Origin: Haplodiscus bocki
Lineage: Eukaryota
NCBI GenBank assembly: GCA_965655095.1
Contig: OZ296649.1
Span: forward strand, 78,616,001 to 78,680,000
DNA length: 64,000 nucleotides
Direction: 5' to 3'
Part shown: positions 19,389 through 25,260 of the stretch, in pieces
Numbering within the stretch: position 1 is the first letter of the stretch
How the letters are laid out: the number at the start of each line of letters is the position of its first letter
The notes under the pieces: model-generated
Databases searched by the model: none
Seen by the model: only the letters and a program-made list of their open reading frames with translations
What the model was told of the DNA's origin: nothing
Program-made: the position numbers and the translations under genes

Positions 19389-19753
19389 AGTCTTGGTGAA
19401 CGTAAATGTATCCAGCTGCTCTACTCAAAAATGCCACCCAAACAGTTGATTTGTCACAAAATTTTGAAAGATGATTTCTCCAAAAGTAATCAATACAATC
19501 AACAACAAGACAAAATTTCGGGACAAAAACACAATTAAAGATCCGGAACAAGTTTATCCCAAACAGGACCACGATTTTCTCCCTTGCCTGTTGTCGTCAA
19601 AGATAATTTTACCTTCCAAAATATCATCTTCTTGATCAATCATCTGTCTTGTACGCTCATTTTCACAATAATGAAAATCGGAAGAAATGATTAAATCATT
19701 TGAAAAAATTAATTACGCAGATACTGACAAAAAATTTCACAATACAAAAAAAG

Positions 19754-20200
19754 TTACAACTTTAAAAGGATAATTGTCCAATTACCAAGCAATTTTGCCT
19801 TGCCCTCTGCACAGTGAAGTGCGGTCTTGTGTCTGAATGGATAACTGGAGCGAATCCACCATCGTTCATCAAAAAGATCCCAATTTTTGGGGCAAGTATG
19901 ATAATCCAAGTTTTCCACCTCTATATCCATCATTTTGCCAAGAATATTGCAATTTTCTGTTCGTTCTGGAAAATATTCACCCTTTACATCTCTATTTGGG
20001 AATCTCACTGTAATCCAAACAACCACTGTTCCACAGAATTTCGTGCAAGTTTCTTGCACACCATAATGTTTGTTTTGTGGGTTTGTACTTTTTTGGAGGA
20101 CAAAATGAGTACACCTGAATTTTCCCAACAAGAAAGACACCCAACTCCTTAAGATGGTTGATATCTAAAAGTCTAATAGCTATTTTAGTGCAGGTCTTAC
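19754..20200 (-). pseudogene. Conserved accessory gene, possibly DEDD/RNase H-fold nuclease-like
   Basis: Frameshifted remnants KELGVFL...F.PPK...C.RNxxG..W..G, then EVENLDYHTCPK and RHKTALHCAE. Confidence 0.4.
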
Positions 20201-20356
20201 TGCTTCAGAAGTCGACAGAATTGAAATTGGAAGATGGAAAGAAGTTGACGTAAAGGCAAAAGAATAGTGCAGTCACGTGACCAAGCAATCATGAGTTTGG
20301 TCCTCGTCCAACCATGTACCAGTAGCCTGGACCTTTGCCACACTGCTCCAGCAGCA

Positions 20357-21035
20357 TCATGCGGTATTGCATGTCGTCCAAATTATTTTGAAATGACGAA
20401 ATAAGAACTCCAAGTACGATTCACCATAAACAATGGTTCGAACAAATTTAAATTTTTGTTCCATGTCACGTAAAGGATGTCTAGAGTCCCAGCAGAAACA
20501 TGCAATTAGAAATAGATTCTTGCCAACGGTATGGTGCTCAAATGACGTTTTTAAACCCAAGTAGAATGAAAAAATGGTCATTAGAAAGAGAATATTCATT
20601 CTTGACAAAGGTTTTTTCAACTATGAACAGTTGTGTCATCAGTAAAATGCACCGCTTGAAAAAAATGTCAATGTAGCTCACTGGAGAAACTCGTGTTGTC
20701 AAGAGTGCTAGGTATTCTGTCAACTTCAGATCCACCTCAATATCTTTGAAGTATAAACGGTTTCAGTAACAGCACACGACAATATTCAAATTGTCTGTAT
20801 CAGTCTTGAAGTTTACACATACTTTTCTCCTACCATTATTTATTGTCCATTCTAGGCAAGAAATTTTTTCTTTAAAATCAGTCTCTTCAATGTCTGGCAA
20901 CAGTTGCTTTTCAACTAAAGTTAGTTCAAGTTTTTCGGGAGAAGTTTTTGGAATTGTAAGTACAAAGTGATAAAGTCTCAATTTTGATTTGAGCTTGAGA
21001 AAGAGCTTTCTATTATCTCCAAAGTTCCAAATCAT
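20357..21035 (-). pseudogene. Accessory genes, including a PC4-like remnant
   Basis: ORF 20763-21035 reads through a stop into RLYFKDIEVDLKLTEYLALL. A homologous segment is present in element 2 at ~53970-54150. Confidence 0.45.
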
Positions 21036-21183
21036 CCTGACTCCAGTAGAAAGAAAATTGATAAAGAGTAAATAAGTGAAGTTAATTTTTATCGGAAGTT
21101 ACAAATAGGTTTATTAGCAACAAATTTATCATATATAGATTTCATAACAAGAAGTAGATATATAAACTCATCCAGTTTATAAG

Positions 21184-21660
21184 TCACATAGGCAACATGT
21201 TGAAACTTCTTGCCCTCTTCTTCCATGAAGTTTTTCGGATCTGATCAGAAGAACTCTGCGGCTTGTCCACACTGTACCTCAGCAGAGTCACACAACTCTT
21301 TCTGTTTGGTCTGTGAACTAGGTCAACCACCTTGCGAGCCAGACTGGCTTGTTCATCTATGTCTAACCACATTGTAGGTATCAGCACTGGGGACAGGTTT
21401 TCCACTCCAGCAGAGTTTTTTGCTGTAATGACCAGCTGATTCGTCAATCGCATCAACTAGCTAAAATCTGCTTCTCCCATTGTCAGATTTTGGAACAGTC
21501 GGAAACCTCTGATGTCATCGTTCTTGAAAACTTCGAGTTTTACATCAAAGTAGTTGAAATCATTTTTGGATAAAGAAAAATGTCCAAATCTGCCATGGCA
21601 TTTACCAGAGTCAAGATAGTCGGTACAAGTTGGCTTGTCCAAGGAAACAGTAGTGTTGTA
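21184..21660 (-). pseudogene. Accessory gene with tandem PC4-like (ssDNA-binding) pattern
   Basis: ORFs 21457-21642 and 21184-21456 are in frame across one stop: RFGHFSLSKNDFNYFDVKLEVFK...NLTMGEADF. A homolog lies at ~53200-53640 (+). Confidence 0.5.
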
Positions 21661-22069
21661 ATCTAAGGGTGAATGATATAGAAGACTGGTTGCTGAAAAA
21701 AACTATTCATTTTTGTGAATGAAGGTTAAAGAATGATTTTGGAGCTGCACTTCGTTACTTATATATGCAACTTTTTGGTCATTGTCACTTGACATTGCAA
21801 TATGGAGATTCTCTCCCTTTTAGGTCCATGTCAGGTAATATTTCCATAAATGGAACCTCTTCCCTCTTTTGGTAGGTTTTTACAATTAGTAACAGTATCT
21901 TGTTTTTTTTTCAGATTAATTTCTTCAGAAAACGACTCAACAATCCGCTAGCAGCTGTATTGTTACAAAAGATTCCGAGCTTTTACGCAAAACATTCAAA
22001 AAGCAGTGTTATCATTTCTGCAACCACCTACTAAAATTATATTGTGAGTGAAGAATACTGTATTCTGTA

Positions 22070-22784: not shown

Positions 22785-23215
22785 CCACAACGTTTCAGAT
22801 TTTGAACAAACTTTTTTTTCGTTTGCTCAAATTTTTTAATAACATTTTTACAACGTGTCAGATTTTGAAGTGAAAAATATCAAAGCGTTAGATTTTGAAT
22901 TGAAAACTTTCGACATAGCTGATTTGGGCAAAATCTTCGCAATCAAAATATCAAGTTTTGGCTCGATTTACTCCGCGAAAACGACATATTTTGCGTTTTT
23001 GTGCCATTCTTAAAAGAAAGACTTTATATTAAAATTTTTACAACGAGTAAGATTTTATATTGAAAAAAATACAAGGCGTCAGATAATGATTTACAAAAAA
23101 AGAACGCGTCAAATTTTGAATACAAAAATTTACAACGCGTCAGATTTTGAATTACAAAAAAAAGAACGTGTCAGATTTTGAAATAAAATCTTTGCAACGT
23201 GTCAGATTTTGAATT
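22785..23215 (+). repeat. Internal ~31-bp tandem array (core CAACGTGTCAGATTTTGAA)
   Basis: About 10 degenerate copies. An inverted counterpart (TTCAAACTCTGACACGTT) lies at ~51180-51620. Confidence 0.85.
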
Positions 23216-23251
23216 TAAAATTTTTCATCTGTTTTATTCTTAAATTCTCAC

Positions 23252-23515
23252 TTAGTCCCACCACATGTACTTTTCCCACCAATTTACTCTAAATGACCAT
23301 GAACAATTACAGCCTACAATACCTTCGTCAACTAGATAAGTGCATTCGGCACTGTTCAAACAACAATTCTTGTACTCAATTTTGCAAGAAGCTTGACTTT
23401 TGATTTGGCTATGGTGTTGCACTTTATTCTCCGTAAAAGTTTGATTTACGCAGAAACTTGATGGTACTAGTAAAAATAACGATAACGATACTAGAACTGT
23501 TCTAGTCTCACACAT
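23252..23515 (-). pseudogene. Secreted EGF-like growth factor homolog (signal peptide + single EGF domain), decayed
   Basis: MCETRTVLVSLSLFLLVPSSFC signal-like leader, then C-x7-C-x5-C-x10-C-x-C-x8-(W for C), ending EKYMWWD*. A second copy lies at ~50890-51150. Confidence 0.75.
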
Positions 23516-23609
23516 GTCTGACTTTATTATTTTGCAAGAGATTTTGACAAAATGAAACACGATGATCACAATTTATAATAAAAGACATAAAAAGTCACAA
23601 TAAAATAAT

Positions 23610-24053
23610 TTATTCAAACAACTTTCTATAAACATAATCGGGAACATTCTCAATTCTTGTTCGGATTGGGCAACCTCTCATCAACACAGTGGGTTGGGTT
23701 GGTATCTCGGAGACTGGCGTTGTTGGAGGAGGAGAGTTCTCCTTGCATTGTTCTTTGTCCATCAGAATAGGGTTTTGAACCATCGAACACAACCTAAAAT
23801 CGTAAAAAGTTGAAGAAGAAAAGGGAGTATCTATGCCTGGTCTGAAGACAACATGTACATTCAGTTGATCATTTTCCCAACAGAATTCAACACCGTCCAG
23901 ATCAACCACGTGATACCCAATTATGTCCATATCTTGTGCGCCTACACGTGAGAGCACTTCGTCCCTCATCTCCATAGTCCCTTCCTGGTTGGGGGTAGTT
24001 GGAATCCGCGGTAGAAAATAGTTCAAAACGTCTGCTCTTTGAGACAACAACAA
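23610..24053 (-). CDS. Accessory low-complexity protein with KEN and SP/TP motifs
   Basis: Open ORF: MEMRDEVLSRVGAQDMD...FRPGIDTPF...KENSPPPTTPVSEIPTQP. Homolog at ~50440-50800 (+) (VEMRNKVFSTVGMQKMD, IRPGMDTPF). Confidence 0.55.
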   Translation of the reverse strand: MLLSQRADVLNYFLPRIPTTPNQEGTMEMRDEVLSRVGAQDMDIIGYHVVDLDGVEFCWENDQLNVHVVFRPGIDTPFSSSTFYDFRLCSMVQNPILMDKEQCKENSPPPTTPVSEIPTQPTVLMRGCPIRTRIENVPDYVYRKLFE

Positions 24054-24486
24054 GCTCCAAGCTGAAAGAAGAGTTTCTTTGGAAATTATTGTCAGTTCTT
24101 GGACGATATTTTCTACAGTCAGAGCGCCTGAATCTGATCAAAAGTCGAAAGACCACTCAGTACCGTCATTGGACACTGAGAAAATCATGTTGCCTTACTC
24201 TAGACTGAAAGTGTAAAAAATGCGAATAGAAACAGATTTTTCGTGAATTGTATCAACCAATGGGGAGTCGACACGATTATGCCATAAATTGATTCATTTT
24301 CGCCTTTTATGGCTCAGTTTCAGGTGTGCTTGATTGTGATTGGCGGAGAATTTTCTGGAAAAATGGAGATCGATTTGTTTTTTTTTCAGAGTCGCGCCTT
24401 GTTCTTCTTGCTTCCTGCACAACAATGTGTACCATCACCACCAAACAACATAATTGTTGGGTTTTGGTCTTTAAATGGAATATTCA

Positions 24487-25260
24487 TCACGTCAGAGCAA
24501 GCTCTGCACTTTTTACCGTCGCGAAAATTAAAATTATTGTTGATTGAAAATTAAACATACTTTTTGTTTGGGCTTGTTGGACAATACACATCTCTAGTGT
24601 CATCTTGAATTGAATTTTTCGTTTCTTCAGAACTTTAAATCCCTTCACAAAACTTAAAAAAAAAGAATTGGTTTGTTCTTCAGAAAGAATATTGCGCACC
24701 TGACACATGGAATCGCATTGAGGACATTGATAGCCGCTTCTGGTGAGAGAATGGAAAGTGTTTTTGTGGAGGCAAATATATCCGAACACATTGTGGTCGG
24801 AGAATACACGTTCCCAATAGGATAAATTTTGCTATTGTCGTACCGAGAAACAGCGGCAAATGCACTACACATCGTATAAGCCCTCAATTATTTCTCACTT
24901 GTTTGCAACATGATACCGGTTCTTGAAGAAGTGGTGAAATTCGGGATGGTTAAGGTTGACAATTCCTGTAAGATTAAATCGATTGCCATGTAAATCAAAT
25001 TTTCTGATGCAAAAGACGCTAGAATCGGTGTTTCCAAATCGGAGCGTTAAATGAAGTTGCCTATCTGGATTTTCAATATTATCGTTGCTGTAATGAGCAA
25101 AGAGATTGTTCTTGCATATCCAATCTCAGTTTTGGGTTTCGGTAGTGGATTTTGTAAACACTTTCTCGCTTTATTAAAAGTTTTGAGGTGATCGCGCAAA
25201 CTGTCGACCGAAGAAATTAGTTCTCTTTTCGAGATTTTCACTTTTTATTGAAGTATATAA
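24487..25260 (-). pseudogene. Accessory genes: Cys-rich (CPQC) protein and a further PC4-like remnant
   Basis: HNVFGYICLHK...YQCPQC. Upstream remnant DNIENPDRQLHLTLRF...IVNLNHPEFHHF. Homologous DNA at ~49400-50100. Confidence 0.4.

Follow-up and report, generated by a model that had tools for sequence, protein, structure and literature searches.

Why does a run of small genes, most of them at first sight without a nameable family, occur twice in mirror image within one stretch of DNA? We analyzed 64,000 nucleotides of Haplodiscus bocki (assembly GCA_965655095.1, contig OZ296649.1, positions 78,616,001 to 78,680,000 of the forward strand; hereafter the window, with positions counted from its first letter), in which two Polinton/Maverick elements, here called A and B, each carry such a run. 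A preliminary description had seen in it a cassette conserved between two diverged subfamilies of otherwise different elements, a stable module for early functions or host manipulation rather than randomly captured DNA. We consider it likely instead that both runs are the accessory region of one abundant Polinton/Maverick (adintovirus-type) lineage, left as dead copies from related sublineages, and that in the active virus this region helped the element to replicate and to manipulate its host. What is unexpected is the set of genes it holds, most of all a predicted secreted ErbB-type growth factor in a Polinton.

Two dead Polintons carry the block in inverted orientation

Element A (12966..31162) is a full-length, decayed Polinton/Maverick of 18.2 kb that begins with AGTAGT, ends with ACTACT and has the 6-bp duplication ATTGAT at both flanks; its terminal inverted repeats (TIRs; 12966-13672 and 30758-31162) are 80-85% alike and contain 28-30-bp repeats. 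Its core virion and integration genes (14000..19424, − strand) are all broken; from motifs spotted by eye in the broken frames we take them to be protease, major capsid, small basic protein, penton, integrase and packaging ATPase. The accessory region sits between this ATPase and the protein-primed DNA polymerase B (pPolB; 26300..30440, + strand), also broken, which we take to be such from motifs spotted by eye and which matches B in tblastx. Element B (46484..55653) measures 9.2 kb, is internally deleted, more decayed than A and inverted relative to it. It ends in AGTAGC, its flanks AATGAT and AAGGAT agree at five of the six target duplication bases, and its own TIRs (about 46511-46729 and 55426-55629) are alike at 152 of 198 positions. 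B is made up of a capsid fragment, two short pieces, the accessory block, a hairpin and the C-terminus of pPolB (46913-49050, − strand), the only part of that gene kept; about 8.5 kb of A is absent. All copies in the window are dead.

Mavericks have (AGT)2 or (AG)3 ends and a 6-bp target duplication (Barreat and Katzourakis, 2021; PMC8097293). The likeness to the elements covered in the available text of that survey extends to the (AGT)2//(ACT)2 ends, the 6-bp duplication, the TIRs, a length that falls in the range 12.7-24.6 kb, core modules with accessory regions next to them and the mostly degraded state of the copies. The difference is that the accessory region here lies between ATPase and pPolB and holds host-directed genes that can be named, whereas that text names none.

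To compare the blocks, 300-bp tiles of A were aligned to the reverse complement of 44000-58000, with 40 shuffled tiles as a control (mean score 33, maximum 37). Sixteen of the 20 tiles from 19400-25399 scored above the best shuffled tile, each at the corresponding place in B, and the 13 tiles from 20300-24199 reached scores of 53-160 at 61-74% identity. The tblastx comparison of A with B, which the preliminary description had proposed as a check, gave colinear similarity on the same inverted diagonal. The homologous block thus delimited comprises about 5.1 kb, A 20334-25463 matching B 54500-49183 at roughly 60-70% nucleotide identity, inverted and colinear, so the mirror-image recurrence is real but its extent is not the 19390-25260 and 49400-54850 first given. 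Within A 19390-20330 the match to B is confined to 180 bp (19640-19820), and 19390-19424 is the beginning of the ATPase. A 24636-25118 has no counterpart in B in the A/B alignment, and B has some 400-450 additional bases between the CFTYQH gene and a 31-bp tandem array. The two copies share the order KEN gene, EGF-like gene, 31-bp array, CFTYQH gene on the opposite strand, PC4/PUR-like gene and further genes, much as had been described, except that the frames labeled membrane protein do not align between A and B.

One way to account for this is that distinct Polinton subfamilies retained or exchanged a discrete 5-6-kb module in one piece. The TIRs are largely different, as previously noted: A and B have only about 35 terminal bases in common and are unrelated beyond them, which suits such a module. 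Outside the block, however, tile identity between A and B is similar (71-73% in the major capsid protein, 61-67% in pPolB), leaving core and block at the same identity; no boundary motif was seen; and the edges coincide with B's deletion points because of which pieces B retained. We therefore regard transfer as a unit as unlikely. A and B are homologous end to end, their colinearity being due to common descent, and the synteny is ordinary and marks no special cassette: the block is the accessory middle of two dead copies of one Polinton lineage.

At B's junction between accessory block and pPolB lies a fold-back hairpin with 55-bp arms (49125..49250; -36.5 kcal/mol, z -10.3, equaled by 0 of 200 shuffles), while the matching stretch of A has a z of 0.46. 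Standing at a deletion junction and absent from A, it may record a template switch during replication. The fold-back, the retention of both TIRs with a near-perfect 6-bp duplication, and the loss of about 8.5 kb of core genes with no block gene lost could also be read as signs that B, rather than being a copy that eroded in place, was a mobile non-autonomous element whose block was kept because it benefited spread (or the host). Yet B is a single instance and all its genes are broken, and survival of the block is no test of this idea because the block is defined as what B kept; we hold it to be distinctly improbable.

The lineage is abundant

Our scans returned 329 relatives among 342 candidates for the gene with a predicted PUR fold and 895 among 933 for the KEN gene. 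Contigs lying on A at at least 80% identity numbered 110,485 and 114,735 in two runs of one study, perhaps the source sample, so that the counts are not independent; most were less than 95% alike, and they fell in all 30 bins. The lineage would thus have inserted very many times in its host, B being the older copy that lost most of its core genes. In both runs the summed contig depth, which is no copy number, was about tenfold lower over A's pPolB (26408-30705) than over other A genes. Perhaps the pPolB of most relatives is a different one or is missing altogether; the low depth also speaks for a block that moves on its own between subfamilies.

The PUR-fold gene is matched by 1,292 cluster representatives, and the best 150 of these, which we compared, are all 46-85% identical to the relative P0008. 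P0134, P0140 and P0144 are full-length orthologues at 50-52% identity; two of them belong to clusters, with 6 and 27 members, of near-identical sequences from short contigs, which suggests young elements in other lineages. In P0231, from a second subgroup, the order of the PUR-fold gene followed by the 139-aa gene is kept. Three of these 150 representatives (P0213, P0254 and P0268) join PUR-gene sequence to sequence lying upstream in A (23.6-24.9 kb), by tandem duplication or another gene order. A metagenome scan yielded a single locus, L001, of 1,167 bp, in which three genes of the block have open frames; its identity is 81% to A and 65% to B. Scans of viral contigs and one scan of genome contigs found no relative.

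Decay after insertion and uneven divergence

Most of the difference between A and B is decay after insertion. Over 1,036 sites, private changes at codon positions 1/2/3 were 34/32/33 in A, 94/72/80 in B and 12/6/21 in L001; taken relative to L001, these counts put the decay since insertion at about 10% for A and about 24% for B. The 799 aligned codons of six block genes hold 26 stops in B, where every gene is broken, and 4 in A. The A and B copies of the 192-aa PUR-fold gene are 65% and 49% identical to the P0008 group, against 32-41% to P0134, P0140 and P0144. The earlier idea of two diverged subfamilies is accordingly half right: the sublineages have different TIRs, yet both copies stand nearer to one protein family than to its distant orthologues.

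The divergence is uneven along the block. In the PLA2-like, 139-aa and PUR-fold genes together, A and B differ at 20 of 62 four-fold sites and 132 of 409 second positions, with no excess; the ratio of nonsynonymous to synonymous change (dN/dS) is 0.85-1.05 and codon bias is absent, so that this part shows nothing beyond neutral decay. In the CFTYQH, EGF-like and KEN genes, 36 of 54 four-fold sites differ against 128 of 390 second positions (p = 2e-6). pPolB differs at 20 of 40 four-fold sites and 127 of 356 second positions (p = 0.056), with a third-position excess at p = 0.0002. The CFTYQH, EGF-like and KEN genes have thus diverged under purifying selection and were therefore functional across sublineages with different terminal repeats. 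It follows from the unevenness that A and B descend from distinct sublineages in which the other sub-block was nearly identical. Such a mosaic probably arose by exchange of sub-blocks between colinear sublineages, with recombination as the presumed cause. The contrast between pPolB, with its third-position excess, and the PLA2-139-PUR part, with none, is what one would expect if the block had been transferred whole, but two divergence patterns within the block, hence two histories, argue against a single unit.

The same figures bear on whether the accessory genes could be neutral passengers, either DNA taken up from the host or open reading frames in decay, with colinearity reflecting descent alone. 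The lack of codon bias in three genes (dN/dS as above) and the lack of Pfam matches would agree with this. Against it stand the four-fold excess in the other three genes, the preference of L001-only changes for third positions, the full-length PUR-fold orthologues (50-52% identity), found in clusters with 6 and 27 members, and the intronless, compact form of the genes, and we judge it very unlikely. The description of a stable module rather than random capture holds insofar as these are real, lineage-stable accessory genes with many relatives, distant orthologues and purifying selection in half of the block.

A predicted secreted EGF-like growth factor

The EGF-like gene (23252..23515, − strand; frameshifted B copy 50900-51147, + strand) is of ErbB-ligand type and its product is predicted to be secreted. 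It has six relatives (four plus two cluster members) of 85-89 aa. Receptor ligands of the ErbB type share a characteristic six-cysteine spacing, and five of the six relatives have Arg before the sixth cysteine. An N-terminal hydropathy peak of 2.2-2.6 is seen in five of six and no later peak after residue 30 in any, so hydropathy predicts a secretion signal and no membrane anchor. When a profile of five sequences was searched against the PDB, all 26 matches at E ≤ 10 were ErbB ligands, their chimeras or one EGF-like ant venom peptide; the best was amphiregulin (E 1.5e-4), and 5 matches had E < 0.001. In the Atlas search the protein matched epigen at 0.90, and Pfam EGF families gave no match.

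Position 23502, within the gene, is covered by more than 100 contigs in each of the two runs, and the gene is therefore a regular part of the family. Cellular ErbB-ligand precursors are distinguished, under the criteria of Stein and Staros as given in the available text of PMC1618406, by a splice site that separates cysteines 4 and 5, together with a transmembrane segment close by. A's frame is continuous, with no splice site there, and the relatives end 5-11 residues past the last cysteine, with no transmembrane segment nearby. A consensus-like splice donor follows directly after the stop codon (23246-23251, − strand), just before the 31-bp array, and might allow a spliced transcript to the downstream hydrophobic frame.

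The viral ErbB ligands listed in the same text are poxviral, and vaccinia growth factor stimulates the host EGF receptor (PMC13705586). The protein shares with the poxvirus growth factors of these sources a small viral EGF module that would be secreted and has ErbB receptors as its expected target. It differs in lying in an 18-kb integrating germline element rather than a large cytoplasmic virus, and its receptor action is predicted.

A predicted PUR-fold protein and its neighbors

The label PC4-like had been given to 21098..21660 (− strand; B copy 53181-53734, + strand), and this stands at superfamily level: Foldseek and a structural model point to a 192-aa protein with a tandem PUR/PC4/Whirly fold. 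An earlier model from a shallow alignment had pLDDT 34; that of P0008 has pLDDT 68 and pTM 0.53. Its best Foldseek match is PURA repeats I-II (E 8.4e-6, TM 0.49/0.62), with a structural alignment of 144 residues at Z 8.9 and a root-mean-square deviation of 4.6. Further matches include Drosophila Pur-alpha repeats I-II, MRP1/2, Whirly and phage T5 PC4, at 8-15% sequence identity. A viral fold library returned only uncharacterized proteins at TM of about 0.3, and Pfam gave no match. The protein resembles PUR-alpha, PC4 and Whirly in having two beta-sheet-plus-helix repeats in one chain, but is here viral, stand-alone, 192 aa long and at 8-15% identity without a Pfam match. From its fold it is probably a single-stranded DNA (ssDNA)-binding protein, and thus a candidate for the one required by protein-primed replication.

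Next to it lie the 139-aa gene (20620..21035, − strand; B copy 53767-54194, + strand), intact in L001, and the PLA2-like gene (20245..20602, − strand; B copy about 54233-54500, + strand), frameshifted in A and open in L001. Direct tests of the 139-aa gene as a PUR/PC4 paralogue gave E 0.11 and no profile match; a 97.9% profile match to the PUR alignment is an artefact, because some rows of that alignment read through into the 139-aa gene. The PLA2-like gene, searched in Pfam, PHROGs, NCBIfam and the PDB without a match, shows in L001, to the eye, a Gly-rich loop followed by a His-Asp pair, which we take to be a PLA2 motif. Adintovirus PLA2X combines a parvovirus-type PLA2 domain with a pX-like one at the C-terminus. 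No C-terminal pX-like domain is evident in A's broken frames, and L001 stops inside the gene. Between the ATPase and this gene lies a 136-aa stop-free frame (19757-20164, − strand), mostly missing in B, into which the relative P0154 reads.

A KEN-motif protein and further block genes

The KEN gene (23610..24188, − strand; B copy 50249-50813, + strand) encodes an acidic protein of 192 aa that combines SIM-like, KEN and S/T-P motifs with RxLF at its C-terminus; we assume that the usual meanings of these motifs apply here. Of 119 relatives, 101 have KEN, 94 have the SIM-like motif, 107 have RxLF at the C-terminus and none has LxCxE; in a shuffled member the chances are 0.5% for KEN, 0.4% for SIM-like and 4.6% for RxLF. 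No family, PDB or usable Atlas match was found, and an N-terminus paralogous to PC4 is without support.

The CFTYQH gene (22082..22552, + strand; B copy 52274-52649, − strand) encodes 156 aa with a basic C-terminus; A and B differ at 10 of 15 four-fold sites against 39 of 123 second positions, and Pfam, PHROGs and NCBIfam gave no family match. A possible small membrane protein (22558..22794, − strand) has the most hydrophobic 19-residue window of the 632 stop-free frames in the window; a hydrophobic frame occupies the corresponding place in B (52087-52224, + strand), the two showing no mutual alignment. The 31-bp array (22766..23243; core 23039-23220 with 5.9 copies; B copy 51187-51309, degenerate units to 51619) is a probable regulatory repeat. 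At the far end, 24250..25463 (− strand; B counterpart 49183-50181) is a broken, partly Cys-rich coding region of which 24253-24636 and 25118-25463 align with B above shuffles. The PC4-like label first applied to this Cys-rich gene gained no backing: neither a PC4 fold for 24250-25460 nor PC4 paralogy of 24898-25125 found support.

Throughout the block, no gene matched Pfam, PHROGs or NCBIfam at curated cut-off, and weak GNAT_LYC1-like and DUF6339 rows below that cut-off were set aside. Where most genes had seemed unnameable, several can now be named by fold or motif, leaving the CFTYQH gene, the 139-aa gene and 24250-25463 without a name.

A possible role in replication and host manipulation

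Every function in the following scheme is one we infer. The accessory region would have acted early and on the host. During protein-primed replication, single strands that are displaced would be covered by the PUR-fold protein. The secreted EGF-like peptide, like vaccinia growth factor, would stimulate EGF receptors of the host, both on infected cells and on their neighbors. The KEN/RxLF protein would engage APC/C and cyclin-CDK and so keep cells in a condition that favors replication. Entry may be assisted by the PLA2-like protein, a role also proposed for PLA2X. Of the early or host-manipulation role first suggested, then, the second part is favored by two genes, through the EGF profile matches and the KEN-protein motif census.

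The closest parallels are found in adintoviruses, whose accessory genes include PLA2X, Oncoids and Bcl2/IAP, with an 'SSDBP' label on the Hydra and Stylophora maps (Starrett et al., 2021; PMC8502044). As here, cell-cycle manipulators recognized by motif lie upstream of PolB, and a PLA2 gene, in our case PLA2-like by motif, lies near the ATPase. The SSDBP label is a further parallel, and the SSDBP of Hydra and Stylophora may have the same fold as the PUR-fold protein. By contrast, the main text and readable supplement of that paper mention no EGF, PC4 or Whirly, and its main text no growth factor. The KEN protein, unlike the adintovirus Oncoid, is without LxCxE (0 of 119), and may work in an Oncoid-like way via other motifs. 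Variable accessory genes are also described for coral polintoviruses in the available text of PMC11131425. Nowhere in the literature searched, which included available text of PMC10748475, PMC3671162 and PMC11131425 and left most subscription literature outside, did we see an EGF-like or PC4/PUR gene described for a Polinton.

For the access of Polintons to dividing and germline cells, a secreted ErbB-type ligand offers a directly testable route; if borne out, it would extend viral growth factors beyond poxviruses. More tentatively, and in our estimate with the odds against it, the secreted EGFR agonist, an APC/C-cyclin decoy and the PUR-fold ssDNA-binding protein might have formed a coordinated mitogenic kit that drove proliferation of host stem or germ cells, so that the germline was reached thousands of times. 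The element would then be a small virus that integrates and uses a growth factor in the manner of poxviruses.

Several points weigh against an accessory region of one lineage with these roles. Four-fold counts are small, the EGF-like gene alone having 6 such sites, and the split into two sub-blocks was picked after the per-gene values were known (p = 0.0004 between blocks, about 0.002 over the five possible splits). The six-cysteine ErbB-ligand spacing is intact in three of six relatives and lost in A's copy. The KEN relatives are near-identical, so their motif counts are not independent, though subgroups 72% apart exist. The PUR model is limited by its pTM of 0.53 and a TM-score of about 0.5 to PURA. 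Core gene pieces had no match at curated cut-off in Pfam, PHROGs or NCBIfam, and a PDB sequence search that included major capsid protein and integrase gave nothing above noise. No intact element or long neighboring locus was retrieved, gene order beyond A and B coming from the three L001 genes and read-through proteins only.

Other features of the window

Just beyond A's left end, 12026-12913 is an 888-bp duplicate of its major capsid region (14857-15742), 97% identical. Between penton and major capsid, a small basic open reading frame with a GFG-type motif (15940-16272, − strand) may be akin to 'Cupiennin', a virion gene found in adintovirus modules of the Beta type. At 1704-3158 (+ strand) are fragmented gag-like open reading frames of a long terminal repeat retrotransposon (Retrotrans_gag E 0.0006, below cut-off). 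Outside A and B, dispersed and tandem repeats pair 33589-34228 with 62894-63325 and 31732-31855 with 62466-62587, and occupy 37010-37603.

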